64,000 nucleotides of DNA. Source: Candidatus Latescibacterota bacterium (GTDB taxonomy: Bacteria; Latescibacterota; UBA2968). The stretch is from positions 160,001-224,000 of the forward strand of contig OZ242010.1 of assembly GCA_965204745.1 (NCBI GenBank), in the 5' to 3' direction. This document shows, one piece after another, positions 45,447 through 62,187 of the stretch (positions are counted from its first letter, which is position 1; each line of letters starts with the position of its first letter). The position numbers were made by a program, and so were the translations under genes. Below the pieces are notes generated by a model. It was not told where the DNA came from and made no database searches. It saw nothing but the letters and a program-made list of their open reading frames with translations.

Positions 45447-46393
45447 AAGTGGACATCCGAGACAGAGAAGCCTTGATCGCGGTTTCGCCTGCGGCCCTAT
45501 CGGCTTATGCTCGCGGTGTGGGTTGGATTAAGGGTGAGCCTTATGGCGACCATTCCGATGTGTATGATGCCGAGGGGTTGCCAGAAATCATTTTGCCGCG
45601 CACCCAATGCCTCGGCGACTACGCCCATGTCGTATCGCAACTCATCGAGATTTTTGCGCGTGTCGCCGAGGTGGATGAACTCGCGCTATACCGCGACTTG
45701 GTTACGGCGGATTACGATGTGATTCGGGTGCGTGCCGGCGGCAATGAAGGTGCAAAGGGCGATGTGTCCATAGACGCGGGAATCGACCTGATGTGCGGCG
45801 CACGCGATATGCTCGTAGCCACGGCCTGCTCGCTGGAGAAGCCACGTCCGCTCTATCGCACAAATACAATCAAAAAAGCCAGAGACGATTTGAGCCGCGT
45901 GCGCTTGGGGCAGACCGAACAAGGCAGTTTTGTCGTCACTTTGTTGATCCCTTGGACATCGCACTTTAAGCCTATTGAAAGGCGGATAACGAGACGCCTG
46001 TCAGATGCCTTGTCAGCTATCCAAAAAGCGACCAAAAGAACAAATGGCGGAGATGTAGAGGCGTTTTTCAATACCGTGTCTGATGGCGTAAGTGCCAATC
46101 TGTGCGAAGCACTCGTGAAACTCATTGAACCGTTCCCAACATTGGATATCAGCGTGGTTTGGGCACGCACGCGGCCGATGAAAACCGGGCGAGAGACCAT
46201 TCGTTTCGCCAAGGACGACGCGCCAATTTTGCGCGCGGTAGCACGGTCATTCCGACGAGAAACCGATTGGGAAACGTTGCCTCGCCACTTGCAGGATGCC
46301 GTTGACGCCAAGTTGATGGAAGAAGCGCGTGGGGAAAACAGCGCAACACTTCCTCTGAGAGGTCTCCTGCGTGAGACTGGAGAAGCACCGTAG
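45443..46393 (+). CDS. Conserved hypothetical partner of DUF4365 protein
   Basis: ATGA overlap with upstream gene; LGQTEQGSFVVTL and GVSANLCEAL motifs. Confidence 0.7.
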   Translation: MKVDIRDREALIAVSPAALSAYARGVGWIKGEPYGDHSDVYDAEGLPEIILPRTQCLGDYAHVVSQLIEIFARVAEVDELALYRDLVTADYDVIRVRAGGNEGAKGDVSIDAGIDLMCGARDMLVATACSLEKPRPLYRTNTIKKARDDLSRVRLGQTEQGSFVVTLLIPWTSHFKPIERRITRRLSDALSAIQKATKRTNGGDVEAFFNTVSDGVSANLCEALVKLIEPFPTLDISVVWARTRPMKTGRETIRFAKDDAPILRAVARSFRRETDWETLPRHLQDAVDAKLMEEARGENSATLPLRGLLRETGEAP

Positions 46394-46408
46394 CAATGGA
46401 GTTCTTTC

Positions 46409-47248
46409 ATGCGTGTATATCTCGATCGGTTGCGATATATTCTCGACCACGGCATCAAAAAAAATGATCGCACAGGCGTGGGGACGATCTCGTGTTTTGG
46501 TCTGCAAGCGCGTTACGCGATGGCCGATGGATTTCCGGCCGTGACGACCAAGCGATTGGTTTGGAGATCCCTGCTCTCGGAACTGCTGTGGTTTGTGTCT
46601 GGGTCGGACAACATCCATGATTTGAAAGCCCATTTGAAAAGCAACCGGCTGTGGGATGGCAATTACGCGGACTATTTGAATCGCTTGGGACTGGATGCAA
46701 ACGACGGTGGCATGGGGCGCATTTACGGGGTGCAATGGCGGTGCTGGCAAGGGGCCAATGGCGAGGTGGTGGATCAACTTCAAGAGGCGATAGATTTGAT
46801 TAGACACAATCCCGAGTCCCGGCGCATTCTGGTCAATGCGTGGAATGCGGCTGAAGTAAGTCCGCAAGACGTGGCCCTGCCCCCGTGTCACAACTTGTTT
46901 CAATTTTACGTGGCAGAGGGCAAATTGTCTTTGCAGATGTATCAGCGGTCCTGCGACATGTTTTTGGGCGTGCCCCTCAACATCGCGTCCTATTCCACAT
47001 TGTTGCACATGGTCGCCAAAATCACAGGGCTTGTGCCGCACGAATTTATTCACGTCCTCGGCGACGCCCACATTTACCTCAACCACCTCGACGCGGTCAA
47101 AGCGCAACTGTCTCGCACGCCGTATCCCCTGCCCCAGTTGCAGATTGCAGACCGCGGTCAAACCGAGATCGATGATTTTGTGATGGACGATTTTGAACTG
47201 ATCGATTACCAGCACCATCCGACCATCCGAGCGAAAATGGCGGTGTGA
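46409..47248 (+). CDS. thyA: Thymidylate synthase
   Basis: DRTGVGT, ELLWF, YGVQWR, SRR, ALPPCH, YQRSCD.FLGVP.NIASY, GDAHIY.NH. Confidence 0.97.
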   Translation: MRVYLDRLRYILDHGIKKNDRTGVGTISCFGLQARYAMADGFPAVTTKRLVWRSLLSELLWFVSGSDNIHDLKAHLKSNRLWDGNYADYLNRLGLDANDGGMGRIYGVQWRCWQGANGEVVDQLQEAIDLIRHNPESRRILVNAWNAAEVSPQDVALPPCHNLFQFYVAEGKLSLQMYQRSCDMFLGVPLNIASYSTLLHMVAKITGLVPHEFIHVLGDAHIYLNHLDAVKAQLSRTPYPLPQLQIADRGQTEIDDFVMDDFELIDYQHHPTIRAKMAV

Positions 47249-47288
47249 AGGCGGGGAGAGGGAAGAGGCAAGATACTCTCTTAAAAGG

Positions 47289-48296
47289 TCAAGGGGTTTT
47301 CGGGGTGATTCGATAGAATTTTTCGCCCTCAAAATCTTGGTCATGGCGCAACATGCCCCAGATCGAATGGAGCAACTTTCGCATCACCGCAACGATAGCC
47401 TGCAAAGGTTTCTTGCCGCGGGCGATGAGTTGGTCATAGAAGGCTTTGACATGGCCTTCGTGTCTGATGGCCACCCAGGCAGGCATATAGAGGGCATGGC
47501 GGAGGTACTTATTCCCGGTTTTCGAGATGCGTCTTTGTGGATTGGCGGTTCCGGATTGTTTGGGTTTGGGATCCAGGCCTGCATGTGCGACCCACTGGGG
47601 CGGTTGCATCTCCTCTGGCAAAAGGGTCAACTCGGCCAAGAGCCGCAAGGCACTCGTTTGCGCGATGCCAGGCGTCGAGCAGAGGCGTTGGTAGGCACGC
47701 TTGAGGGGCTCATCGTGCAAAACGAGATCGAGGGCTTGGCTTTCCAAGTATGCAATCCGGCGTTTGAAGTGTCGAATATTCACCTGAATATCGCGTGCGA
47801 TGAGACGTGTGCTGCGGATGTGGTAGCTCTGCGCGTGGTTGCGGCTCTGTTCGCGGATGATCTCCTGCTTGAGTTGGTCAATGCGTCTGGTGAGGGCTTG
47901 CAGTTGAAGCCGTTGCTCGCTCGGCGCTTGCCAAGGCACAAAAGGCATGCGCTCGGCATAGTCGAGGATCAACAACGCATCCTTCGCATCCGTCTTCGCC
48001 CGTTGCATGCAGGCTTGGGCGTACTTGCTCATCGCTTTGGGATTGACGACCATGACCTTTGTGTGGCGATGCCGATGCAAGGCCAAGGCCACCCCCAAAC
48101 TGTAAAGCCCGGTCGCTTCGAGGCACACAGAGACCATGTGCCCGCCCTTCGTGAGCCACTTCAGCAACCGCTTATGCGCTTGGGGATCATTGGCAAAGGT
48201 CGCTTGCATGACAGCTTGTCCGGGTCTGGACAGGGCAACGGACAACGTGCGGGCACTGACATCAATGCCGGCAAAAGCGGGGTGAGATTTCGACAT
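47289..48296 (-). CDS. IS110 DEDD recombinase/transposase
   Basis: GIDVS, LEATG, KTDAKDA, PGI, AGLDP..QSG, SK.GN.YLR.ALY, A.VAVMRKL; AGGAGG RBS before ATG 48296. Confidence 0.95.
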   Translation of the reverse strand: MSKSHPAFAGIDVSARTLSVALSRPGQAVMQATFANDPQAHKRLLKWLTKGGHMVSVCLEATGLYSLGVALALHRHRHTKVMVVNPKAMSKYAQACMQRAKTDAKDALLILDYAERMPFVPWQAPSEQRLQLQALTRRIDQLKQEIIREQSRNHAQSYHIRSTRLIARDIQVNIRHFKRRIAYLESQALDLVLHDEPLKRAYQRLCSTPGIAQTSALRLLAELTLLPEEMQPPQWVAHAGLDPKPKQSGTANPQRRISKTGNKYLRHALYMPAWVAIRHEGHVKAFYDQLIARGKKPLQAIVAVMRKLLHSIWGMLRHDQDFEGEKFYRITPKTP

Positions 48297-48349
48297 GGGG
48301 GCCTCCTGTGATGAGGGGGTTGTAAGGGATCTGGTGCGCGCTCGGGGTC

Positions 48350-48535
48350 GCGTCCCGACCATTGACGCCAAGTCTACCGGTCTTGTATATGCAGCCTCAA
48401 GGGGCTTAGATACTCTTCGGCATAGACCCGGCGGTCGGGGGGCCTATCTTACCTACAAGGTCATCGCCTTCAAGAGGGGCCGGCCTTCCCCGAGCCGGGC
48501 ATCAAGATGGCTTATCTCGATACGAGGGCGCAACT
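48350..48535 (-). ncRNA. Predicted IS110 bridge RNA, copy 1
   Basis: 5' hairpin, then two internal loops: LTG CCCCTCTT (48479-48472), RTG AGGTAAGA (48454-48447), LDG AGAGTATCT (48416-48408), RDG ATACAAGA (48388-48381), matching target and donor junctions. Ends approximate. Confidence 0.85.
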
Positions 48536-48645
48536 CCTAATTAACCCTTACTTCCAAGATACAAGAGGGGAGACGCGAGAGGGGAGAGGGAAGTTTAGTC
48601 ACGAGCGGTACAACTGGCGACAGATTGAAGGAGATGACGAAATGA

Positions 48646-48771
48646 AAAAGAGCGATTTCGAGCAAACCAGCGAACTTCGATCCAAAATTTGACCTCGACA
48701 GCGACGGAGAGGTCGGCTTTTCCGATTTCATCATTTTTGTCGATTCTTTTGGCAAACCCGTCAATGGATAA
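48646..48771 (+). pseudogene. Orphan 3' fragment encoding an EF-hand/dockerin-like C-terminal domain
   Basis: PANFDPKFDLDSDGEVGFSDFIIFVDSFGKPVNG-stop, with in-frame stop at 48643 and no start. Confidence 0.65.
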
Positions 48772-48809
48772 TCCTTTCGCTTTATCGTCATCCCTTTGAG
48801 TGCGAAACC

Positions 48810-49379
48810 GTGGAACGCTTTCTCATTTTGGTCAAACACGCGATGCCTCGCATTGACGAGACGAAATCCGCCGCAGACTGGCACCTGTCTGAGCGCGGCC
48901 GGGCGAGTTGTCTCGATCTCGCCGAGGCGTTGCGTCCCTATAACCCCGACCTTTTTGTCACGAGCGACGAACCCAAAGCGCGAGAAACAGGTCAACGCGC
49001 CGCCGAACACCTTCGGCTTCCCTGTTCACCCGTCCCCAATCTGCATGAACACGACCGCAAAGGCGTTCCCTTTATGCGCCGAGAAATCTGGCATGCCACG
49101 CTAAAAACCTTCTTTGCTCGCCCCGACGACCTGATCTTGGGCAATGAAACGGCAAATCAAGCGCGGCTTCGGTTCAGCCGAGCGGTTGAAGCAGTTGTGA
49201 AAACGCACCCCCACAAAACCATCGCCATCGCCACACACGGCACGGTCATCTCTTTATTCGTCGCGCAAAAAACGCGAACCAATGGCTTCGATCTCTGGCA
49301 ACGCTTGGGCTTGCCCTCGTATGTGGTGCTCGACCTGCCGGACTACAACTTGCACGCCCTTGCAGAACGGATAGGATAA
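48810..49379 (+). CDS. Histidine phosphatase (phosphoglycerate mutase) family protein
   Basis: LILVKHA, LSERG, TS.E.KA.ET, LHE, IATHG. Confidence 0.85.
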   Translation: MERFLILVKHAMPRIDETKSAADWHLSERGRASCLDLAEALRPYNPDLFVTSDEPKARETGQRAAEHLRLPCSPVPNLHEHDRKGVPFMRREIWHATLKTFFARPDDLILGNETANQARLRFSRAVEAVVKTHPHKTIAIATHGTVISLFVAQKTRTNGFDLWQRLGLPSYVVLDLPDYNLHALAERIG

Positions 49380-49507
49380 CGCGCCGCATTCTCAACGGAA
49401 AAAAATCTCCTTCACTTGCTTTGCCTGTGCAACTCGACAAACAGGCCGGTATTTTGTAAAAAGCAAGCACATCGTAGCCATTTTGATATGAAAGGGGCCC
49501 CACGCCA

Positions 49508-49795
49508 ATGATCTACGCAATCATACCTTTTCAGCGGAGTAAAAAAGAAAAACTTCGCAACAAAGTAGAGACACTCGGGATTCCCGTCTATACTGACGAA
49601 GCCCCCACCGCTTACTTTGTGTCGTACAACGGGACGACGCGCGAATTGGCCGAAGCTATCGGGTTTAGCAATGGCGAGTCGGGTACGGGTATCGTCATAC
49701 CGGTCTCGAATTACTACGGTTATGCAGCCAAAGACCTCTGGGAGTGGATCAACATCCACGAACATGACTATGTAGTAGGATGGCCGCGGATATGA
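49508..49795 (+). CDS. Small hypothetical protein
   Basis: Natural-looking 95-aa ORF ending YYGYAAKDLWEWI; GGGG RBS; overlaps next gene. Confidence 0.6.
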   Translation: MIYAIIPFQRSKKEKLRNKVETLGIPVYTDEAPTAYFVSYNGTTRELAEAIGFSNGESGTGIVIPVSNYYGYAAKDLWEWINIHEHDYVVGWPRI

Positions 49796-50160
49796 CACCT
49801 GACCAAAACAACAATGCAGAGAACGCTGAAAACCGGGAACTCAGCCCTCCGCCACGTCCAGAATCGCCATCCCATTCTCCTGGAGACACGAGTCAGTGGA
49901 TCATGCGGAGTCTCAACATGATTAACGACACACTCGACGAGATTAGAAAAGACATCAGCGATCTAAAAGACCGAGTCGCTCGCGTGGAAGAAAAGGTCGA
50001 ATCGATCTCACGGGTTGAAAGTGGATTGCAGAGCCTGGAAAAAAGAGTGCGGAAGCTTGAAAATCGCTTTTGGGTCGCCGTCGGAATTTTTGTGGTTATT
50101 ATCTTTTTGGCGCGCATATTTCTCCCCGATTTTGACATCGCGATCACACCAAAGCCATAA
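49780..50160 (+). CDS. Coiled-coil protein with C-terminal TM helix (XhlA-like architecture)
   Basis: Heptad L/V/I pattern then FWVAVGIFVVIIFLA. Confidence 0.65.
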   Translation: MAADMTPDQNNNAENAENRELSPPPRPESPSHSPGDTSQWIMRSLNMINDTLDEIRKDISDLKDRVARVEEKVESISRVESGLQSLEKRVRKLENRFWVAVGIFVVIIFLARIFLPDFDIAITPKP

Positions 50161-50331
50161 GGCAAGCGTCTATCGTAGGCAACGACTTGACGCGGGGAAA
50201 GGGAACGGAAAATCAGTGAGATAAATCAGCCCGAACCCGTAGGGATTATTCAGTAATCACTCAAACAGTCAGGAGTAGCGTGTCGAAAATAAATTGTCAA
50301 CATTTGTTCATAAAAGCCGAATGTTATTACT

Positions 50332-50925
50332 ATGGCTTATGTAAATACGCGCAAAGCAGTTGCTTTGCTTGGCGTTCATCCGAATACGTTGCGTAAGTGG
50401 GCGAATGACGGTCGGATTGAACATATCCGCAGTCCAGGTGGACGGAGACTTTACAATGTCGATGCGTTCTTGCGGGAAGAAGTTGGCGTTGCCGTTGTGT
50501 GCTATGCACGGGTTAGCAGTGATGCCCAAAAAGACGACTTGCGAGGGCAAGTTGCACTCTTGCGATCCCGTTATCCCGGAGCAGAGATCGTCAAAGACAT
50601 TGGCGGGGGCCTCAACTAAAAGCGGAAAGGACTTGTCGCCCTACTGGAACGCTTACACAGCGGAGAGAAGTTGCGAATTGTGGTTGCCCACCAAGACCGC
50701 CTTGCACGGTTCGGCTTTGAACTTATTGAGTGGTTGGCAAAGCAAAACGGGGGCGAGATCGTGGTTCTCGACGAGTCAAGTTGCAGTCCAGAACAAGAAC
50801 TCACGCAGGATATTTTGTCCATTCTCCATACGTTCTCTTGTCGGCTGTCCGGACTCCGCAAGTATCGTGACAAAATCGAGAAAGATAAGAGTCTCTCTGA
50901 CAAGCGAGCAGAAGGCGTTGGTTAA
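50332..50925 (+). pseudogene. tnpA: IS607 TnpA serine recombinase with internal nonsense codon
   Basis: MerR-like HTH (LGVHPNTLRKW), YARVSS, GGGLN-TAA(50617)-KRKGL in the same frame, DRLARFG. Confidence 0.9.
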
Positions 50926-52008
50926 GTTATGGATGGATGGTAGCCGTTGGTGGTATAACGAGGCGGTGTCTTTGTATCGTTTGGGATATGATTTGTCTGA
51001 GTATGAGATGCGTGCTATTGTTCGTGCGGTGAGTCCTGAGTGGTTTGCGGATGTTCCGAGCAAGATATTGTCTGGTGCGATAACGGATGCTCATAGGGCT
51101 AACCGTGCGGTAAAGAAGAAGCGTAAGCAGTTGAAGGATAGAGGTATAAAGCGTAAGGTTGAGTTGGATTTTCGTAATCGTAAGGATCCTATTCAGTCGT
51201 TTTCGTTGTGTAATGTGGCATGGAACAAGGCTTTGACGACGATCTATCCTCGCAGTCTTGGCGATATTCGTTTGTCCGAGCCTGTCTCTGTTGTACCGAG
51301 GGATGGTCGTTTGGTCAGTCACAATGGCAGGCCTATGTGACCGTGCCCTATTCAAGTCCACAACACGTAGCCGAGAACCAAGGGCGTGTTGTGGCACTTG
51401 ATCCAGGTATTCGCAGTTTTTTGACGTTCTTTTTTCAAACAGATTGTGGCAAGATTGGCGACGGTGACTTTGGTCGTATTCAGCGTTTGTGTGTTCATCT
51501 TGACGGGTTGATCGGTCGCATGACAAAGGCCATCGGCTTTCGCCAGGTGCGTTTGAAGCGTGCCTGCCATCGCATGCGGTGGCGCATCCGAGACTTGATC
51601 GATGAACGCCACAAACAGACTGCTCGCTGGCTGGTGGACAACTACGATGTGATTCTTCTGCCCACATTTGAGACCAGCGAGATGGTTGTGCGTGGCAAGC
51701 GTTGCCTTCGTCGTAAGTCTGTTCGCAGTCTGTTGACCTTTGCTCATTACCGCTTCAAGCAGTTCCTCAAGCACAAGGCGTTTGAAACTGGCAAGTTGGT
51801 CTTGGATGTGAACGAGGCATACACGTCCAAAACAGTCAGTTGGACAAGCGAGATTGTAAAGAACTTGGGCGGAGCGAAAGGCATTCGTAGCAGGAAAGAT
51901 GGTCAAGCGATGGATCGAGATATCAACGGCGCACGGGGTATTTTTCTCCGTGCTTTGGGGGATACACCCAAGTTGCGGAACTGTTTGGATGCAACTTGCA
52001 CTGGTTGA
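50360..52008 (+). pseudogene. tnpB: IS607 TnpB RNA-guided nuclease (pro-Fanzor-type motifs), frameshift near 51330
   Basis: KSRKIRV..EQK..W....RWWYN; HNG / AYVTVPY frame change; ALDPGIRSF, NEAYTSKT, DRDINGARGI. True start uncertain. Confidence 0.88.
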
Positions 52009-52068
52009 ACACTTATTGATTTGCTTAGGTTGTTAATAAGGGTCAACAGAAAGGTATCAGATAGGCAC

Positions 52069-52272
52069 ATGGACGACCGAATCTCCATCGATCCCAAAGT
52101 GTATCACGGTCAAGCATGCATTCGAGGAACGCGCCTTCCCGTGCATCAAATCCTCCGAATGCTCGCTAATGGGGATACTGTTGAAGACCTCCTTCGAGAA
52201 TATCCCTCTGTGACGTGGGAAGATATCCGCGCTTGCTTTGACTATGCAGCGTCATTGGCTGAAACCGCTTGA
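52069..52272 (+). CDS. DUF433 antitoxin
   Basis: RISIDPKV.HGQACIRGTRLPV..IL.MLANG.T.EDLL.EYP.V..EDI.A...YAA. Confidence 0.92.
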   Translation: MDDRISIDPKVYHGQACIRGTRLPVHQILRMLANGDTVEDLLREYPSVTWEDIRACFDYAASLAETA

Positions 52273-52290
52273 TAGCCCCTTGGATGAGGT

Positions 52291-52653
52291 ATGAAAATCT
52301 TCGTCGACGAGCATATTCCCCTCATGACGGTCCAAGCCCTGCACCTGAGGGGGCATGATGTCCGTGATATTCGCGGTACCCCAAATGAAGGAATGCAAGA
52401 CGACGCATTGTGGGAAATGGCACAACGGGAAGCGCGTCTGTTGATTACGACTGACAAGGGCTTTATGCACTACCGCACAGTGTCGCACTATGGGGTGCTC
52501 ATCATCCTGCTACGACAACCGAACCGCCACGAGATTCACCAACGCATTATGCAAGCACTAGGACAGTTTGACGACGCGGAATGGCCCGATTTGCTGGTGG
52601 TCATGCGGGATATTGCCCAGCGTACATGGCACAGTACTACGCGCAGAAGTTGA
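52291..52653 (+). CDS. DUF5615 PIN-like toxin (VapC45-like)
   Basis: MKIFVDEHIP, L..GHDV, G..D, A..E.RLLITTDKGF, H.GV. Confidence 0.88.
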   Translation: MKIFVDEHIPLMTVQALHLRGHDVRDIRGTPNEGMQDDALWEMAQREARLLITTDKGFMHYRTVSHYGVLIILLRQPNRHEIHQRIMQALGQFDDAEWPDLLVVMRDIAQRTWHSTTRRS

Positions 52654-52712
52654 AACGAATAGAGCGCGGGGAATGGCAACTGCACCACCGCCGCTTAAAA
52701 AAGGAAAACACT

Positions 52713-53516
52713 ATGCAACTGATAGAAATAGGGAGAAAGGACTGGGTCTTTCGAGATCCGACGATTACCGATGAGATCCAGCAAAAACTCGATCGAGCAT
52801 TGGATACCTGGGAAGCGGGTCAGGTTGAACGGGCAAAAAAAATGCTTCGCGCTATCATCGAGGAGTGTCCCAATCACATCGATGCGTGCCATCATTTATC
52901 GCTTATCTACGAGGAGCAAGGTAGAACATTGGAGGCTTACGTTTTCTGCCAAGCTGCCGTCAGCATCGGGTTGCAAGCGATTCCCGAGAAATTCAAATGG
53001 GAGCAATCAACAGTCACATGGGGTCTGTTGGATAATCGTCCATTCCTGAGAGCGTACCATAATCTTGGTTTGTGGCATTTCCATAACGATAGGTACGACG
53101 ATGCAATTGAGATTTTTGAGAGACTCCTATTTGTTAATCCAAACGACAATCAGGGAGTCAGATATCTGTTGCCGATCTGTTGGTTTGAAAAAGACGAATT
53201 ATCGGCAATTCTCGATCTCTGCCACCAATACTCGGATGATATTGGTCCCGCAATTCTCTACTCTGAGGCATTGGCACTTGCACTCCTTGGGCGAGGCGAG
53301 GAGGCGCGAGCGGCGCTGAAGAATTGTGTTCTTAAACTGCCGTTGGTCGGCAAGGAGCTTTTGAAGAAGCGACATCCCAAGCCGAAATTCCGAATAGAGG
53401 GTTATATTACTCATGGAGACCATGCTCAAGCCTATGAATATTGGAGAGATTTCGGCAAATACTGGTCAGATTCGGAATCCGCGATGAAACTTTTGAGACG
53501 GGCAATGAAACGATGA
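52713..53516 (+). CDS. Tetratricopeptide-repeat protein
   Basis: AAGGA RBS + ATG 52713; TPR helices; W..LDNRPFLRA and NPNDNQGVRYLL motifs. Confidence 0.75.
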   Translation: MQLIEIGRKDWVFRDPTITDEIQQKLDRALDTWEAGQVERAKKMLRAIIEECPNHIDACHHLSLIYEEQGRTLEAYVFCQAAVSIGLQAIPEKFKWEQSTVTWGLLDNRPFLRAYHNLGLWHFHNDRYDDAIEIFERLLFVNPNDNQGVRYLLPICWFEKDELSAILDLCHQYSDDIGPAILYSEALALALLGRGEEARAALKNCVLKLPLVGKELLKKRHPKPKFRIEGYITHGDHAQAYEYWRDFGKYWSDSESAMKLLRRAMKR

Positions 53517-53594
53517 ATCGCACGGGTGAAAGCATCCTCGCAAAACCATCGCCATGTGCGGCACGGTCATCGCTTTCTTCGTCGCGCCAAAACC

Positions 53595-53626
53595 AAAACC
53601 CGACCACCTGAGTGGCCGGGTTTTTT
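53595..53626 (+). terminator. Intrinsic terminator
   Basis: AAAACCCGACCAC-CTGA-GTGGCCGGG-T6. Confidence 0.65.
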
Positions 53627-53653
53627 GGATGATTCTCGATCTCTCTCTCGTGA

Positions 53654-53740
53654 ATACCAAATTGAATTGCTGTTGTCCTACTATACTGGAACACGTCAAC
53701 GAGTCACTGCTTCGGACAGGCACGGGGGCCTGTCTCTACG
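53654..53740 (+). repeat. Dispersed element family C ending in GTAG-type REP palindrome
   Basis: Direct copy at 58134-58218; ends CGGACAGGCACGGGGGCCTGTCYCTAC. Confidence 0.85.
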
Positions 53741-53757
53741 GGTGATGGCGGCGGGAG

Positions 53758-53860
53758 ATGCAAAGGACATAGCGGAGTGGGAACGATGAAGCGGCGGCAG
53801 GGCGGTGTGGGGTAATCCGTGCAATCCCCTAATCCGCGAAAATCCGCGATTCAGACACGG
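53758..53860 (+). repeat. Dispersed element family B
   Basis: Matches 23824-23926. Confidence 0.8.
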
Positions 53861-53949
53861 CGGGGTGGGGAAGGGACGGGAACGCACGGGCGGGGGGTAA
53901 GGACGAAGCAGTGGATCGACTTGGCGGTGAAAAAATCGGGAGATGAGCC

Positions 53950-54744
53950 ATGGTCGCTGCGGCACACAAACACCTCAAAACGGTCGTCATGGTCGCCACG
54001 CGCTCGTTGGACGACAAGGGGTGGGTCATCGTTGGGGGATATGGGTTGCGCTTGTTGCGCGTGGTGTTCCTGCTTTCCCTGTGGCGCGTCTTGTTGCCCG
54101 AAACCGGTGAAGTCTCGGGCCTGACGCGCGATGCCGTGCTGACTTATACCCTCATTGCCGAAGTCTTTGCCGGGCAAATCTCCGTTCGCACGGGCCTCGA
54201 TGGCGCGCTTTGGCACGGGGATATCGCCAATCGCTTCTTGCGCCCGGTGGGCATCTACGGGCAATTCATCGCAGAGATGGTCGGCGCGGGCCTGCCCAAT
54301 CTGGTCATGTTCTCATTGCCCCTCTTTTGCCTGGCCCCGCTGTTGGGCGTCGATCCATTTCCGGAACATGCGATAGCCGGCGGTTTGTTTTTCGTCAGCC
54401 TGATTTTGGGCATTGCCATCGGCGCGGCATTTGACTTCATTTTTGCGAGCCTCATGGTTTTGTTAGAGCAAAGCGTTTACGCGCTGATGCAAATTCGAGA
54501 TGCGGTCAGCGTCTTGTTGTCCGGCGCGATCATTCCCCTCGCGCTGATGCCCTGGGGGGTTGGCGATATCCTCACTTACTTGCCCTTTGCGTCGCTGGCC
54601 TCTGCGCCCCTGCGGATTTACACGGGCACGGGCGATCCCGCGTTCCTCATCGGCCTTCAGGCCGTTTGGGCGGTCATCCTGTGGCCCGTTGCCCACCATT
54701 TCTGGAACGCCAATCGAGAACGCTTGGTCTCGCACGGAGGATAG
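53950..54744 (+). CDS. ABC-2 family permease (DUF990)
   Basis: GDIANRFLRP, LSGAIIPLALMP..LPF, C-terminal VSHGG. Confidence 0.85.
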   Translation: MVAAAHKHLKTVVMVATRSLDDKGWVIVGGYGLRLLRVVFLLSLWRVLLPETGEVSGLTRDAVLTYTLIAEVFAGQISVRTGLDGALWHGDIANRFLRPVGIYGQFIAEMVGAGLPNLVMFSLPLFCLAPLLGVDPFPEHAIAGGLFFVSLILGIAIGAAFDFIFASLMVLLEQSVYALMQIRDAVSVLLSGAIIPLALMPWGVGDILTYLPFASLASAPLRIYTGTGDPAFLIGLQAVWAVILWPVAHHFWNANRERLVSHGG

Positions 54745-54748
54745 CGCG

Positions 54749-55579
54749 GTGAACACCTTGACCCAACTGATCGCCCGTTGGCGCGTGCAGGCGTATTTGG
54801 ACTTCATGTGGATGACGCGGGATTTTCGGTTCTTTCTGATCAACATCGTCTCGGACATCATTCTCAACCTCGCGGGGGTGATGGCGGTCTTTCTCTTGAC
54901 CGAACGCTTTGAGGGCATCGGCGCGTGGTCGCGCGATCAAATCGTCTTCATGCTCGGGTACGCGGCCTTGGTGCGCGGCCTGCTGGACGTGGGATTCAGC
55001 TACAACGTCCTCCACATCAGCCGCCGCATTGGCCGCGGGCAGATCGACCACCTCCTCGTGCAACCGCAACCCCTGTGGATGGGTCTTCTGACCGAGGGAT
55101 TTATGCCGTTCTCCGGATCGTGGTCTTTGCTCACCGGCATCGGCATTATGGCTTGGGCCATCCACCAACTCGGCATGGCGTCGACCACGTACTGGTTCGC
55201 GTTCGCCTGCAATCTCGCGGCCTCCTGCGCGATAGTGCTCGCATTCTCTTTTGCCTGGGGCAGTTTGGCATTTTGGGCGCCGGTCGCCGCCGAAGAAATC
55301 AGCAGCCGCGCGGTCAATTTTATGTACCAACTCAAATCGTTTCCCCTCGATGGTTTAAGCGCGTTTGTGCTCGCCAACATGCTCGCGGTCTTGCCAGTCG
55401 GGTTTGTCGCGTGGTATCCCTGCCGGCAATTGCTCGGCATCGCCCCGCCGAACCTGTGGCACACCCCGCTCGTCGCCATCGCCTTCTCGCTCATCGCGTG
55501 GGTCGCGTTCAAAAAAGGCATGCAACACTATGAACAAACCGGATCACAACGCTACCTCGGCTGGGGCCATCGCAGTTAA
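54749..55579 (+). CDS. ABC-2 family permease (DUF990)
   Basis: GTG after GGAGG; GAWS, GQIDHLLVQP, FPL, Y..TGS. Confidence 0.85.
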   Translation: MNTLTQLIARWRVQAYLDFMWMTRDFRFFLINIVSDIILNLAGVMAVFLLTERFEGIGAWSRDQIVFMLGYAALVRGLLDVGFSYNVLHISRRIGRGQIDHLLVQPQPLWMGLLTEGFMPFSGSWSLLTGIGIMAWAIHQLGMASTTYWFAFACNLAASCAIVLAFSFAWGSLAFWAPVAAEEISSRAVNFMYQLKSFPLDGLSAFVLANMLAVLPVGFVAWYPCRQLLGIAPPNLWHTPLVAIAFSLIAWVAFKKGMQHYEQTGSQRYLGWGHRS

Positions 55580-56549
55580 ACTCCGCAAGGTCGATAAAAT
55601 TTTCTACCAACGCCAGCGGTCCGAAAAAATCCAAGACGTGTTCAAAAACCTGTTTCGCCCGAACATCCGGAAAATTCGCGCCTTGCAACAGGTCGATCTC
55701 AGCATTCGCCGAGGCGAAATCGTGGCGTATGCCGGCCCCAATGGCGCGGGCAAATCCACCACTGTCAAGTTGCTCTCCAGCGTTTTGGCCCCCACAGCCG
55801 GCAGCGTGGAATGCTTGGGCATGGATCCCATGAAAGACCGCGTGCAGTACGTCAAGCGCATCGGCGTGGTGTTTGGGCAGCGCACTGAATTGTGGTGGGA
55901 CCAACCCGTGGTCGCCAGCTTTGAGTGGAAGCGCGTGGTGTGGGAGATTCCCCGCAACCGGTATGACGCCATGCTCGGCTTTGTCAAAGACCTGCTCGGC
56001 ATCGACGAATTTTTCAACGCCCTGGCGCGGCAACTCAGCCTGGGACAAAAAATGCGCGCAGACCTCGCCCTGATGCTCATGCACGAACCGGAAATCCTCT
56101 TTTTGGACGAACCCACCATCGGCGTTGACGTGCTCGCCAAACGCAACATCCTCAACTTCATCAAAAACCTCAACCGGGAAAAAGGCGTCACAGTCCTGCT
56201 CACCAGCCACGACATGGACGAACTCGAGCAACTCGCCGGGCGCATCGTCATGATCGACAAGGGCCGCATCGCGTATGACGGGGATTTTCGACACCTGCGC
56301 CGGCAATTTGGCGACCACCGCCACCTCACCATTGAAACCGCGAGCGCGGACCCGCCAAAACTATCGGGCGTTCGATTCATCCGCAGCGAAGGCAACCGCC
56401 ACCACTTCACGTTCGACGCCGCGCAAACGCCCATTCCCACCCTGCTCGACCAAGTGCAAACTCCGATCCGAGATATCGAAACCCACCGCGCACCCATTGA
56501 CGACGTGATCGCAGATATGTACGAACACTGGGATGCAAGGGATCAGTAG
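55530..56549 (+). CDS. ABC transporter ATP-binding protein
   Basis: GPNGAGKSTT, VFGQRTELWWD, LSLGQK, LFLDEPTIG, LTSHDM. Confidence 0.93.
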   Translation: MNKPDHNATSAGAIAVKLRKVDKIFYQRQRSEKIQDVFKNLFRPNIRKIRALQQVDLSIRRGEIVAYAGPNGAGKSTTVKLLSSVLAPTAGSVECLGMDPMKDRVQYVKRIGVVFGQRTELWWDQPVVASFEWKRVVWEIPRNRYDAMLGFVKDLLGIDEFFNALARQLSLGQKMRADLALMLMHEPEILFLDEPTIGVDVLAKRNILNFIKNLNREKGVTVLLTSHDMDELEQLAGRIVMIDKGRIAYDGDFRHLRRQFGDHRHLTIETASADPPKLSGVRFIRSEGNRHHFTFDAAQTPIPTLLDQVQTPIRDIETHRAPIDDVIADMYEHWDARDQ

Positions 56550-56692
56550 TCAGTCCATTGTCTGAATCGCGGATTAAACGGATTGCGCGGATTGCACGGA
56601 TTACCGCGCCGCCGCCCGTGCGTGCCCATCCCGTCCTACCGCAAGCCCTATCCCCAAGTAAGAGGCAAGAAGTAAGATACTCTCTTAAAAGG

Positions 56693-57700
56693 TCAAGGGG
56701 TTTTCGGGGTGATTCGATAGAATTTCTCGCCCTCAAAATCTTGGTCATGCCGCAACATGCCCCAGATCGCATGGAGCAATTTTCGCATCACCGCAACGAT
56801 AGCCTGCAAAGGTTTCTTGCCCCTGGCGATGAGTTTGTCATAAAAGGCTTTGACATGGACTTCGTGCCTGCAGGCCACCCAAGCAGGCATGTAGAGGGCA
56901 TGGCGGAGATATTTATTTCCGGTTTTCGAGATGCGTCTTTGTGGATTGGCAGTCCCGGATTGTTTGGGTTTGGGATCCAGGCCTGCATGAGCGACCCATT
57001 GGGGCGGTTCCATCCCGTCTGGCAAGGAGGCCAGCTCGGCCAAGAGCCGCAAGGCACTCGTTTGGGCGATACCGGGCACCGAGCAGAGGTGCTGGTAGGC
57101 ACGCTTTTGGGGCTCGTCCTGCAAAACGAGTTTGAGGGCTTGGTCTTCCAAGTAGGCAATGCGGCGTTTGAGGTGTCGAATATTCACCTGAATATCGCGT
57201 GTGATGAGGCGGGCACGCTTGACGGGGTAGTCCTGCGCGTGGTGCCGGTTCTGTTCGCGGCTGACCTCCTGTTTGAGTTGGTCAATGCGTCTGGTCAGCG
57301 TTTGCAGTTGCAGGACGTGCTCGCTCGGCACTTGCCAAGGCACAAAGGGCATGCGCTCGGCATCATCGAGGATCAACAACGCATCCTTCGCATCTGTCTT
57401 TGCCCGTTGCATGCAGGCTTGAGCGTACTTGCTCATCGCTTTGGGATTGACGACCATGACCTGCGTGCAGCGATGCTGATGCAAGGCCAAGGCCACCCCC
57501 AAGCTATAACGCCCGGTCGCTTCGAGACAGACCGAGACCATGCGCCCGCCCTTGGTGAGCCACTTCAACAGGTGCTTGTGCGCCCGAGGCGCGTTGTCAA
57601 AGGTGGCTTGCATGACCCCTTGTCCGGGTCTGGACAGGGCAACGGACAACGTGTGGGCACTGACATCAATGCCGGCAAAAGCGGGTTGAGTGTTCGACAT
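56693..57700 (-). CDS. IS110 DEDD recombinase/transposase
   Basis: Same motifs and length (335 aa) as copy 1, with many substitutions. Confidence 0.95.
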   Translation of the reverse strand: MSNTQPAFAGIDVSAHTLSVALSRPGQGVMQATFDNAPRAHKHLLKWLTKGGRMVSVCLEATGRYSLGVALALHQHRCTQVMVVNPKAMSKYAQACMQRAKTDAKDALLILDDAERMPFVPWQVPSEHVLQLQTLTRRIDQLKQEVSREQNRHHAQDYPVKRARLITRDIQVNIRHLKRRIAYLEDQALKLVLQDEPQKRAYQHLCSVPGIAQTSALRLLAELASLPDGMEPPQWVAHAGLDPKPKQSGTANPQRRISKTGNKYLRHALYMPAWVACRHEVHVKAFYDKLIARGKKPLQAIVAVMRKLLHAIWGMLRHDQDFEGEKFYRITPKTP

Positions 57701-57754
57701 CGGGGCCTCCTGTGATGAGGGGTTTGTAAGGGATCTGGTGTGCGCTCGGGTTCG

Positions 57755-57937
57755 CGTCCCGACTGTTTGCCCAGTCTACCGGTCTTGTATATGCAGCCTC
57801 GATGGACTTAGATACTCTTCGGTATCAACTCGGCGGTCGGGGGGCCTATCTTACTTACAAGGTCATAGCCTTCAAGAGGCACCGGCCTTCCCCGAGCAGG
57901 GCATCAAGATGGCGTGTCTCGATGCGAGGGCGCAACA
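57755..57937 (-). ncRNA. Predicted IS110 bridge RNA, copy 2
   Basis: LTG TGCCTCTT (57881-57874), RTG AAGTAAGA (57856-57849), LDG AGAGTATCT (57818-57810), RDG ATACAAGA (57790-57783). Ends approximate. Confidence 0.85.
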
Positions 57938-58133
57938 CCTAAATTAACCCTTTCTGACAACATACAAGAGGTAAGATCCACCCACCGCCCCGCCGTGTCT
58001 GAATCGCGGATTTGCGCGGATTAGGAGATTGCGCGGATTACCCCTCTCCGCCCGTGCGTGCCCGTCCGCACTACCTCTCCACCCGTGCGTGCCCAGCCCA
58101 TCTCCGCCCTGCCATGTGCGTTAGCCCCATCTT

Positions 58134-58218
58134 ATACCAAATTGAATTGCTGTTGTCCTATATACTGGAACACTTCAACTATCACTGCTTCGGACAGGCA
58201 CGGGGGCCTGTCCCTACG
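58134..58218 (+). repeat. Dispersed element family C
   Basis: Matches 53654-53740. Confidence 0.85.
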
Positions 58219-58567
58219 ATACGCCTGTGCGCGCTTTTGTCGTGTATTAGAAAAATTAGGACAACGAAAAATCACATTGGTATTATATCCTGCGGTTGGG
58301 GATTGCGCGGTTACTCCCCACCATCCTACCGCCGCTTCATCGTTCTCCTGGCTATGTCCTTCGCATCCCCTGCCACAAGCAGTGGTCAGCGGCTTTGGGA
58401 ACATCGCCCGCCATTGCCCTCTGTACGCACAAGCCCTCGCAACAGGCTCCTACCTTCAGGGGCCGTTGCGAGGGCTTGTGTCGTTATCGGCTCTTTCTTT
58501 GCACCAACCGGTTAGGGAAGCGCGTCAATCCTGTAATCGTCGCCCACCCTACTCCCTCTAAATCCGT

Positions 58568-58760
58568 TCAAATTGAAGTTGCGACCAATGCAAAACCTGC
58601 CGCTACCAAGACGATTTCGATTTTGACATGGGCGACGCCCTCGTCGACCATATCCAACTTTTTCGCCGCGCCCAACGACAGGTCAAGGATGCGCCAGCCG
58701 ACGAATGGCCCGCGGTCATTGACCTTCACCACAACGGATTTGCCATCTTCGCGCCTCTTC
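58568..58760 (-). pseudogene. RlpA-like (DPBB) lytic transglycosylase C-terminal fragment
   Basis: DGKSVVVKVNDRGPFVGWRILDLSLGAAKKLDMV..GVA.V; the N-terminal half of the domain is absent. Confidence 0.75.
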
Positions 58761-58775
58761 GCGGCGGCCGCGGTC

Positions 58776-59882
58776 TCAAGGTTGCAAGTCGTCGAGCCAG
58801 CGGGCGACAAGTTGGCTGCCTTTTTGAATTTCGGCAATGGCTTCTCGGTCGGGTTGTTCGCGTTCGTCGATCAGCCCTTTTCGCCGGAAGCGGTTGCGAA
58901 CATAACCCCCGCAAAGATGCGCGCCGATAGCGCCGGGATTTTTGAGCAGATCGCAGAGGGCATCGACATACCATTTGCCATCCGCGAGGTAGTACTCCCC
59001 ATCGAGATACTTTCCGCTGTCATCCGCGATGGTTGCCCGCGGGCGAGAGCCATCTGCCCACAAAACCGCCTTGCCCGTGGTCGCATACCAGTCGCGCAGG
59101 TGTTCGACCGGGTTTGAGAAGTCCTGAAAGCTGAGGACATCAACGTAGGGATCGGCGGCTTGGACAATCTCTATCGGGAGGGGTGCATTGGCTTCGTAGC
59201 GGTCGCCGAGGATCAAGTGGTGGGGATCGTAGCGGCGAATCGCGTCGTGCGTGACTCGGTAGTAGCGCGACGCCATCTCGAACAGGTCGGATCGCCCGGC
59301 TTTTGACGAGAGTCGCTCGGGGTCGAACATGGGGCCGCGCCAGGCATTGGGCGGCCGGACGTGAACCCAGGTCGGGCAGTCCGAGTAAAAATAGCCGATC
59401 AAATTCGGTTCATTTCTCAAGCGCGAGCATTGGGATCGCGCGACATAATCGCACCAGTCCTCAAAATCCTCGCTGAAGATATCGGGATTGGCGTGCCATT
59501 GGTTCCACTGATGGGTTTCGATGAACGGGAGCAGGTGGCAGTAGGGCAACGATAGGGCGCGGTATTCCTCCAGCGAGAAGCTCGGGGTGTGCGCGTGGTG
59601 CTTGATGCTCACGTCCTGCACCCAGCCGACGGTGTTAAACCCCCACGATTTCAGGTTGGGCGACACGGATTCGCGGATCCACTTGTGGCTATCATTGCCG
59701 TATTTTTGTTCCCAGCGCGGCAGGTTTTCCGGGTAATGCAATGGGGAAGAATCGATGTGGTTTAGCCCGACCGAGAAAAATGGCTCCCGATCTGGCGTGA
59801 GGAGAATCCAGTGCCCGCCGCGTTTGGCGAGGGTGAAGAACCCTTTGGACGATGTCTGCGTTGTTTGGATCGCGTTGGACAT
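58776..59882 (-). CDS. Putative beta-agarase-like (GH50-related) glycoside hydrolase
   Basis: GFF..W.L.TP...FFS.G.NH, WGFNT.GW, LIGYF, YYRV..DAIRRYDPHHLILGDRY, KGL.D. Confidence 0.7.
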   Translation of the reverse strand: MSNAIQTTQTSSKGFFTLAKRGGHWILLTPDREPFFSVGLNHIDSSPLHYPENLPRWEQKYGNDSHKWIRESVSPNLKSWGFNTVGWVQDVSIKHHAHTPSFSLEEYRALSLPYCHLLPFIETHQWNQWHANPDIFSEDFEDWCDYVARSQCSRLRNEPNLIGYFYSDCPTWVHVRPPNAWRGPMFDPERLSSKAGRSDLFEMASRYYRVTHDAIRRYDPHHLILGDRYEANAPLPIEIVQAADPYVDVLSFQDFSNPVEHLRDWYATTGKAVLWADGSRPRATIADDSGKYLDGEYYLADGKWYVDALCDLLKNPGAIGAHLCGGYVRNRFRRKGLIDEREQPDREAIAEIQKGSQLVARWLDDLQP

Positions 59883-62032: not shown

Positions 62033-62187
62033 GACAACGCTCCTTTTGAATGGGGTGAAAATTGGCGTGACCCGCGTAAAATAAAAAATTCGCGCCTTTT
62101 TACAAGTAAATTTTAAGCGCATGTGCTGAAATGTTTTTATTTTGTAGGACTACAGATGGGTGTCTTGCATCTTGTATCTTTGGGCAT

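Follow-up and report, generated by a model that had tools for sequence, protein, structure and literature searches.

The window analysed here, a 64,000-nucleotide stretch of DNA from Candidatus Latescibacterota bacterium, carries on its minus strand two repeats that the original prediction had taken for IS110-family elements, and the sequence strings that it quoted are all present on that strand. Each repeat holds one recombinase gene, and for copy 1 the CT core and the arms of the target can be read on both sides.

47271..48563, minus strand: insertion sequence (IS) copy 1, guide class A (1293 nt including one CT core; junctions read from the sequence)
56675..57966, minus strand: IS copy 2, guide class C (1292 nt; 88.8% identity to copy 1)
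47289..48296, minus strand: recombinase gene of copy 1 (P0001; 335 aa; Pfam and PDB matches)
56693..57700, minus strand: recombinase gene of copy 2 (P0002; 335 aa; translation and Pfam)
48566-48570, minus strand: target left arm of copy 1, CCCCT (junction reading)
48564..48565, minus strand: left core CT of copy 1 (junction reading)
47271-47272, minus strand: right core CT of copy 1 (inside the element span)
47266..47270, minus strand: target right arm of copy 1, TGCCT (junction reading)

The proteins of both copies match the N-terminal DEDD RuvC-like domain (PF01548, 87 bits) and the C-terminal transposase domain (PF02371, 72 bits), which upholds the assignment to the IS110 family; for copy 1 the E-values are 1.2e-24 (DEDD_Tnp_IS110) and 4.8e-20 (Transposase_20). 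The only homologues of solved structure are two bridge recombinases, ISCro4 and IS621. ISCro4 (IS622, PDB 9T56) gives the best match (E 7.6e-40, residues 7-326), has the same architecture and is an enterobacterial orthologue that was engineered for human cells (bioRxiv 10.1101/2025.05.14.653916). IS621, an IS110-group element of Escherichia coli (PDB 8WT6) and thus of a different host, is only distantly alike (phmmer E 5.8e-36), but it shares the two domains and the five catalytic residues: D12, E60, D103, D106 and S248 align with IS621 D11, E60, D102, D105 and S241, whose roles are described in PMC11208158.

One IS110-group insertion sequence is present in the genome in 52 full-length copies, two of which are the repeats described here; this copy number, together with the co-residence of several guide classes, distinguishes the element from IS621. 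At least 98.8% identity to copy 1 is found in 37 of the 52; an intact 335-aa DEDD/Ser frame is present in 51, all of which retain the five catalytic residues, and 34 copies encode an identical protein. Sorted by target guide, 45 copies fall into class A, four into class B, two into class C and one into class D, while truncated copies carry two further classes, giving at least six in the genome. The left end is long (267 nt) and the right end short (18 nt), which is the layout of the IS110 group (PMC11208160). RNA-guided targeting is also known within the same DEDD family from the IS1111 group and its seekRNAs (e.g. ISPpu9 with its Ssr9 RNA), which resemble the present element in inserting into repeated extragenic sequences and in having orphan RNA-gene copies elsewhere in the genome (PMC12288879); the RNA of that group is encoded downstream of the gene, in a long right end, with subterminal inverted repeats of 7-17 bp (PMC11208160). 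Membership in the IS1111 group was ruled out, as the right end here is only 18 nt and the RNA lies upstream, in the left end. In a contig from another sample, 47268 is directly followed by 48562, with 1293 nt missing; the contig represents the empty copy 1 site at a depth of 108.6 compared to 107-111 in its flanks; with only 25 nt on the shorter side of the joint (the advised minimum being 30), its support for the element boundary is weak.

The dinucleotide CT occurs at both junctions of all 77 tabulated elements, once per junction and with no other duplication. The class D copy and 18 copies in a related genome have CT-T at the left junction (the donor base) and CT-C at the right junction (the target base), and seven copies in a third genome have a C before CT at the left junction (the target base) and a T at the right one (the donor base). 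These junctions rule out the 4-nt TCTT core of the original prediction: the first and last bases of TCTT, at positions 7 and 10, follow the arms in relatives and in other guide classes, so that only CT is common to donor and target. As read from the junctions, the shared core is CT, as in IS621, and the T on either side of it, at positions 7 and 10, is read by the guides and happens to coincide between the donor and the class A-C targets.

The long left end contains the predicted bridge RNA, with the following parts.

48375..48500, minus strand: predicted structured part of the copy 1 bridge RNA (MFE fold, RNAalifold, covariance model)
48441-48485, minus strand: predicted target-binding stem-loop of copy 1 (MFE fold, RNAalifold)
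48375-48422, minus strand: predicted donor-binding stem-loop of copy 1 (MFE fold, RNAalifold)
57777..57902, minus strand: predicted structured part of the copy 2 bridge RNA (aligned with copy 1; consensus structure)

Folding, which had been proposed for the RNA regions of both copies, gave a mixed result, as the MFE fold of copy 1 recovered both stem-loops, but the MFE fold of copy 2 taken alone lacked the consensus structure (z -0.5). The copy 1 fold also pairs part of both target guides together, the guides thus not being strictly single-stranded in silico. RNAalifold, applied to an unfitted MAFFT alignment, returned the same five stems, and a covariance model built from 8 sequences found 73 matches in 78 loci of relatives, all of them preceding the recombinase gene on its own strand. 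Relatives with as little as 39% protein identity have the two stem-loops, internal loops included, upstream of the gene, and compensatory changes are seen: paired cells amount to 85.9% versus 74.4% in shuffled controls (a value reached in 0 of 500 shuffles) and 23.6-47.6% with the partners shifted, covariation is 0.272 versus 0.117, both sides have changed in 22 of 30 pairs, and the helices flanking the internal loops are 92-99.6% paired with two to three compensatory pairs each. No Rfam family matches the bridge-RNA stretch, and none of the sequencing runs listed as containing this DNA is an RNA run. The covariation supports the earlier claim that the left end carries a (predicted) bispecific bridge RNA of the IS621 kind, in which, as in IS621, the target loop precedes the donor loop. 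The two sides of each loop read as follows.

48471-48481, minus strand: 5' side of the copy 1 target loop, with the left target guide GGCCCCT-CT-TG in the same sense as the target top strand
48445-48456, minus strand: 3' side of the copy 1 target loop, made up of the right target guide GTAGGTA, the core-binding AG, the putative handshake AU and a final A
48407-48417, minus strand: 5' side of the copy 1 donor loop, A-AGAGTAT-CT-A, corresponding to the final 9 nt of the right end (AGAGTAT-CT)
48380-48392, minus strand: copy 1 donor loop, 3' side, GCATATACA-AG-AC, whose reverse complement matches the CT-TGTAT that starts the left end
57873-57883, minus strand: 5' side of the copy 2 target loop, GGTGCCT-CT-TG; the copy lies in TACCT-CT, where a guide G faces a bottom-strand T
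57847-57858, minus strand: copy 2 target loop, 3' side, GTAAGTA-AG-ATA, whose reverse complement CT-TACTT equals the right flank 56670-56674
57809-57819, minus strand: copy 2 donor loop, 5' side, identical to copy 1
57782-57794, minus strand: copy 2 donor loop, 3' side, identical to copy 1

The left target guide matches positions 3-10 of the site and the right target guide positions 8-14, and the target loop would pair with the chromosomal site such that its 5' side reads the bottom strand over the former span and its 3' side the top strand over the latter. The donor loop, read directly, would pair with the circle junction AGAGTAT-CT-TGTAT. Reading of the bottom strand by the 5' sides (8-9 nt) and of the top strand by the 3' sides (4-7 nt), around a CT core, is the arrangement of IS621. 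[quoted passage not shown] The donor guides are the same in both window copies, as originally noted. Across the genome, 51 of the 52 copies have the same donor loops, and the remaining one, of class D, carries one substitution in the left donor guide. Compared to the IS621 donor ACAGTAT-CT-TGTAT, as printed in PMC13396178, the donor here matches at 13 of 14 bases. The putative target-loop handshake AU fits donor AT (positions 6-7), as it does in IS621, whereas the putative donor-loop handshake is AC instead of GU; its first base faces target position 7 as A:T here, as G:C in one relative and as G-T in another. A further difference from IS621 is that target and donor both have T at positions 7 and 10, and the handshake base A of the target loop and that of the donor loop can each also pair with their own DNA (T at position 7); strand exchange by IS621 is inhibited by cognate handshake pairing (PMC11208158).

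Each window copy matches its own site at 15 of 16 positions (with one G-T/U wobble) versus 13 and 12 of 16 at the site of the other, and the description of the two as a natural reprogramming pair stands. The claimed covariation of target guides with insertion sites extends to the 52 genomic copies and to three genomes. When five left and five right positions were scored per copy and the labels shuffled 20,000 times, guides and sites agreed at 480 of 520 positions in the genome itself (459.7 ± 2.8 shuffled; 0 of 20,000 as high) and at 665 of 770 across the three genomes (537.8 ± 10.5; 0 of 20,000). The copy's own class fits best or tied best among classes A-D in 51 of 52 copies, with non-cognate classes still scoring 6-8.5 of 10; the match is weak at the 3' flank in one related genome, where the guide CCCTA meets sites that are mostly CCCGT (mean 7.1 of 10). 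The natural targets are heptamer tandem arrays of the type CCTCTTR / CCTCTCC, whereas those of IS621 are REP sequences, and the classes read these variants (left arm, right arm):

Class A target: CCCCT, TACCT
Class B target: CGCCT, TACTT
Class C target: TGCCT, TACTT
Class D target: TCCCT, CACCT

Such agreement could also be a by-product of copy history, if subfamilies had carried their flanks along as they spread, through segmental duplication or through homologous recombination among low-complexity arrays, and the loops directed nothing. Because the sites are all pyrimidine-rich heptamer arrays of similar sequence, any two have many bases in common. The four class B copies lie in copies of one larger repeat, sharing 40-150 nt of flank, because of which the class B insertions may not be four independent events. 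Yet the flanks of the 45 class A copies are unrelated beyond about 20 nt, and the reconstructed class B and C empty sites occur uninterrupted at 15-29 other places each. Occupancy of class A sites, measured against the free sites of the same genome, falls from 80% without mismatch (20 occupied, 5 free) to 7.6% with one (18 and 219), 0.44% with two (5 and 1125) and 0.06% with three (2 and 3142). Moreover, different guides in the three genomes go with correspondingly different sites, and in class D position 10 has changed in both loops (a T>C change on the 5' side and an A>G change on the 3' side), with a C at that position of the target. Spread with the flanks is thus a very improbable source of the agreement, and the IS110-group insertion sequence to which both repeats belong in all likelihood moves, like IS621, by recombination under the guidance of its bridge RNA.

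Three of the 52 copies have 3 mismatches each to their own guide, a poor fit, and all three occupy perfect sites of another resident class. Two are pure class A copies in which the left arm, CCCCT, is perfect and the right arm, CCCGT, fits poorly. The third, in a perfect class D site, is a chimera whose first 100 nt come from another subfamily. These may be ordinary off-target insertions by the copies' own guides, a possible if somewhat doubtful explanation: half-match insertion is reported to account for about half of the off-target events of IS621 (bioRxiv 10.64898/2026.08.31.748434), both deviant class A copies have one perfect and one poor arm, and four more class A copies lie in TACCT-CT-TACCT, whose right half is perfect. 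Against this, CCCGT is rare, following only 8 of 702 free CCCCTCT sites, yet is found in both deviant class A copies and is exactly the right guide of a 190-nt transposase-less mini-element (2972660-2972849 of the same genome) that has a complete target loop of its own class; the perfect class D site and the chimeric make-up of the third copy count against it as well. We tentatively consider that co-resident guide classes, sharing one donor, might have target loops that act in trans on each other's circles, with the mini-element as a guide-only satellite; the two deviant class A copies lie in perfect sites of its class. If so, the near-exhaustion of perfect class A sites (20 of 25) would be a pressure for guide diversification and for guide swapping through recombination between subfamilies, of which the chimeric copy (at 602756) would be an example.

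Two short motifs at the ends of copy 1 could form a promoter when the ends are joined, both on the basis of consensus matches only.

47291..47296, minus strand: TTGACC, putative -35 half of the junction promoter (right end)
48556..48561, minus strand: TATCTT, where the left end starts, putative -10 half of the junction promoter

In the computed circle junction, TTGACC and TATCTT are separated by 18 nt and score 9 of 12, again a consensus match only; no such promoter site was found at either integrated junction or elsewhere upstream of the RNA. By homology with IS621, whose circle has a junction promoter, the element would leave as a circle, joining of its right and left ends would create the promoter, transcription from it would yield the bridge RNA from the left end and, further on, the recombinase mRNA, and the DEDD/Ser recombinase would exchange strands at the shared CT dinucleotide. 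It is also conceivable that the family works in this way but is now silent here, the copies being relics of a past burst whose RNA and recombinase are no longer made, as the integrated copies have no promoter-like site upstream of the RNA and only 5 perfect class A sites are still free. We regard silence as unlikely, since a promoter is expected in the circle only, frames are intact in 51 of 52 copies with 34 identical proteins, 37 copies are nearly identical in sequence, and the copy 1 site is empty at full depth in another sample.

Natural guide-target covariation in IS110 elements is how bridge RNAs were found (PMC11208160), and the present element leaves the understanding of bridge recombination unchanged. 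The suggestion of a candidate new programmable recombinase holds only in the sense in which it applies to any of thousands of IS110 orthologues, and the donor is nearly that of IS621. The value of the element is that of a clean natural data set, in which 52 near-identical donors share one genome, the countable free and occupied sites yield a natural specificity curve over 0 to 3 mismatches, and the natural copies give direct evidence that positions 7 and 10 can be programmed and that CT is the core. As a compact orthologue from an uncultured lineage with a donor arm almost that of IS621, it lends itself to simple cross-compatibility tests with IS621 tools, and the hints of target loops acting in trans and of a guide-only mini-element would bear on off-targets when several bridge RNAs are combined.

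Copies 1 and 2 of the IS110-group insertion sequence (IS; window 47271..48563 and 56675..57966) are two 1.3-kb direct repeats, both on the minus strand, each made up of a 335-codon ORF, a 267-nt non-coding left end 5' of the ORF and an 18-nt right end 3' of it. Both IS110-family Pfam transposase domains are present in the proteins of both copies, among solved structures the recombinase matches only two, ISCro4 (E 7.6e-40) and IS621 (E 5.8e-36), both bridge recombinases, and recombinase residues D12, E60, D103, D106 and S248 align with IS621 D11, E60, D102, D105 and S241, which PMC11208158 describes as a composite active site. The window belongs to one 5.48-Mb contig of the host genome (GCA_965204745.1, the "own genome"), in which blastn with copy 1 as query returned 75 pieces, 52 of them full length. 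Relative to copy 1, 37 of these 52 copies are at least 98.8% identical, nine about 96%, one 94% and five, including copy 2, about 88%; 51 of the 52 retain an intact ORF with all five catalytic residues, and all 57 PF01548 matches in the own genome belong to this family. Its distribution in relatives is patchy, with the IS present in 2 of the 18 additional genomes from the genus (both chromosomes; uncultured Latescibacteria, Candidatus Latescibacterota) and in 1 of 12 genomes searched in the neighbouring family.

The surroundings of copies 1 and 2 contain the following features.

Features of the window near copies 1 and 2
46409-47248, plus strand: thymidylate synthase gene (1.4e-103), about 20 nt from the right end of copy 1
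48810-49379, plus strand: histidine phosphatase family gene, on the other side of copy 1
49225-49271 and 53546-53592, plus strand: 47-nt direct repeat, 85% identical, 4321 nt apart, between copies 1 and 2
50360-52008, plus strand: split TnpB-type candidate, two overlapping frames, HTH_OrfB_IS605 (1e-06) and Cas12f1-like TNB (2e-12)

Copy 1 lies between the thymidylate synthase and histidine phosphatase family genes, and its insertion is intergenic. In another sample, one contig connects 47268 directly with 48562, leaving out 1293 nt, and has the depth of its flanks. It represents the predicted empty site of copy 1, although its shorter side is only 25 nt. The frames at 50360-52008, located between copies 1 and 2, look like the split TnpB-type gene of an IS200/IS605-family element.

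All sequence strings from which the original prediction had read a bridge RNA (a left-end RNA with a target loop followed by a donor loop) in both copies were found. The predicted fold was recovered for copy 1, as two stem-loops that both contain a large internal loop, but not for copy 2, whose single-sequence fold lacked this structure, and we therefore used consensus and comparative methods. When eight sequences from four sources were aligned with MAFFT, RNAalifold returned the same five stems surrounding the loops, and a covariance model derived from this alignment found 73 matches in 78 loci encoding relatives (39-84% protein identity), all of them 5' of the recombinase gene and on the same strand. 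In the covariance-model alignment 85.9% of cells were paired, against 74.4% after shuffling (none of 500 shuffles reached the observed value), both-sided changes occurred in 22 of 30 base pairs, and the covariation score was 0.272 versus 0.117 for shuffled alignments and 0.017-0.065 with partners slid; this alignment is fitted to the model and hence biased toward the structure, but the unfitted RNAalifold alignment agrees with it. The left and right target guides can pair weakly with each other in silico, which is to be expected of guides that read the two opposite strands of a single site. Rfam 15 (E up to 1, window 46000-59500) placed no family on the RNA and returned only a chance snoRNA-like match elsewhere.

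To compare guides with insertion sites, we located the junctions and the four loop strands in the 52 own-genome copies and in 25 copies from the two related chromosomes, using IS621 numbering (left arm 1-7, CT core 8-9, right arm 10-14). The target guides of the own-genome copies fall into four classes.

Guide classes among the full-length copies of the own genome
Class A: left arm CCCCT, right arm TACCT, 45 copies
Class B: left arm CGCCT, right arm TACTT, 4 copies
Class C: left arm TGCCT, right arm TACTT, 2 copies
Class D: left arm TCCCT, right arm CACCT, 1 copy

The covariation of guide and site, proposed from copies 1 (class A) and 2 (class C) as a reprogramming pair, holds throughout the own genome: scored over five left and five right positions per copy, 480 of 520 positions agree, compared to 459.7 ± 2.8 after label shuffling (0 of 20,000 as high), and over three genomes the agreement is 665/770 versus 537.8 ± 10.5 (again 0 of 20,000). 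For 51 of the 52 copies, the own guide class is the best or tied best among A-D. Measured against every CT dinucleotide in the own genome, class A insertions fill 20 of the 25 perfect sites, 18 of the 237 sites with one mismatch, 5 of the 1130 with two and 2 of the 3144 with three; of the sites with the G-U variant CCCCT-CT-TGCCT, 17 are filled and 65 free. All four class B copies sit within copies of one larger repeat, with 40-150 nt of flank in common, and thus possibly are not four independent insertions; this larger repeat is also found uninterrupted at 15-29 places per reconstructed site.

The insertion sites are heptamer tandem arrays. TRF analysis of the whole own-genome contig detected 1119 period-7 arrays covering 38,288 nt, in two groups: a CTGACNA type (CTGACAA/CTGACCA/CTGACTA) and the pyrimidine type used by the IS (CCTCTTG/CCTCTCC/CGTCTCC). 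The arrays often form inverted pairs around GGCCACC and adjoin hairpin repeats, in a mosaic repeat architecture. At own-genome 1121573-1124187 (-), two full-length copies (of the 99.9% and 96% subfamilies) lie head to tail with one heptamer unit between them, indicating that each occupies an adjacent unit of a single array. A literature search, with supplementary orthologue lists outside its scope, found no paper on IS110 elements with heptanucleotide or tandem-repeat targets or with Latescibacter hosts.

The 4-nt TCTT shared core of the original prediction did not withstand this comparison. Both the class D copy and every one of the 18 copies on one related chromosome read CT-T at the left junction and CT-C at the right, and the 7 copies of the other related chromosome have C before CT at the left junction and T at the right. 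Bases 1 and 4 of TCTT thus segregate with the arms, so that only CT is common to donor and target. In class D, both target-loop strands are changed at position 10, which is therefore read on both strands. The donor, AGAGTAT-CT-TGTAT, and the IS621 donor given in the PMC13396178 methods differ by one base, so that TCTT is simply donor sequence conserved around the CT core, and class A-C targets share the donor's flanking T's by happenstance. The only class D copy, at own-genome 1297021 (+), carries the left donor guide AAGCGTATCTA instead of AAGAGTATCTA (one substitution) and a right end that keeps AGAGTAT, and hence has a donor-guide mismatch. The handshake bases, which in the target loop are AU (following the core-binding AG) and in the donor loop AC, can by their sequence pair with T7 not only of the partner DNA but also of their own. 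Whereas purely cognate handshake pairing blocked exchange in the IS621 work, the handshake pairing predicted here is symmetric.

Three copies (602756, 1927357 and 5150697) fit their own guide poorly. Copy 602756 has a class C guide, yet is located in a site that fits class D perfectly. This copy is chimeric: over its first 100 nt it resembles classes B and C (93-94%), and over the remainder the 96% subfamily and class D (94-100%). The other two, 1927357 and 5150697, are purely class A, differing from copy 1 by 0-1 substitutions, and both are inserted in CCCCT-CT-CCCGT. A sixth guide class has exactly this sequence as its target and is borne by a 190-nt derivative at own-genome 2972660-2972849 (+) that has a complete target loop with its own right guide (CT-CCCGT), no recombinase gene, and a donor loop kept up to its 3' strand and joined to the terminal 6 nt of the right end. 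The right arm CCCGT is rare, occurring at 8 of 702 free non-cognate CCCCTCT sites. Since PMC11208158 infers that a synaptic complex takes its target loop and its donor loop from two RNA molecules, use of the target loop of another resident class is mechanistically plausible, and the misfit copies may have inserted in this way. Alternatives are half-match off-target insertion, as reported in bioRxiv 10.64898/2026.08.31.748434, and conversion of the guide after insertion.

The 10-mer CTTGTATCTT, made up of the core CT plus the 8 nt with which the IS left end begins, is a genus-wide repeat module equal to the donor right arm. It occurs at 156 sites outside IS copies in the own genome (e.g. window 62170-62179 (+), own-genome 222170), with a pyrimidine run in front of it, in most cases a hairpin (GGGCGAGCACGGGGGCATCGCCC or similar) behind it, and no matching right end. 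No second IS110-type family that could own these sites was found in the own genome, all 57 PF01548 matches belonging to the one family. Miniature elements with the same right end were rejected, as 139 of the 156 sites lack a GTATCT within 400 nt and the own genome contains GAGAGTATCT only 59 times. Nor are the sites by-products of present copies, as five genomes of the genus that lack the IS likewise show enrichment of the 10-mer (11-56 matches versus 3-5 for a reversed control), the hairpins that follow it there having other stems. A footprint model, with TGTATCT left within arrays, is unsupported, as none of these sites has an array unit after it.

The computed circle junction places TTGACC from the right end and TATCTT from the left end 18 nt apart, with 9/12 consensus matches. 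No TTGACC/TATCTT-type promoter site was present at either integrated junction, and the integrated element has no sigma-70-like site 5' of the RNA and no terminator-like site. This predicted circle-only junction promoter agrees with the IS621 account. Among listed RNA runs, none contained this stretch.

Taken together, the original interpretation was correct in all but the core, and the underlying observation is statistically solid. Judged from sequence, the IS of copies 1 and 2 is an ordinary, probably active member of the family described in 2024, for which natural guide-target covariation was the route of discovery (PMC11208160). Its interest lies in a large and clean natural experiment with heptamer-array targets, in a donor near-identical to that of IS621 and in hints of guide sharing.
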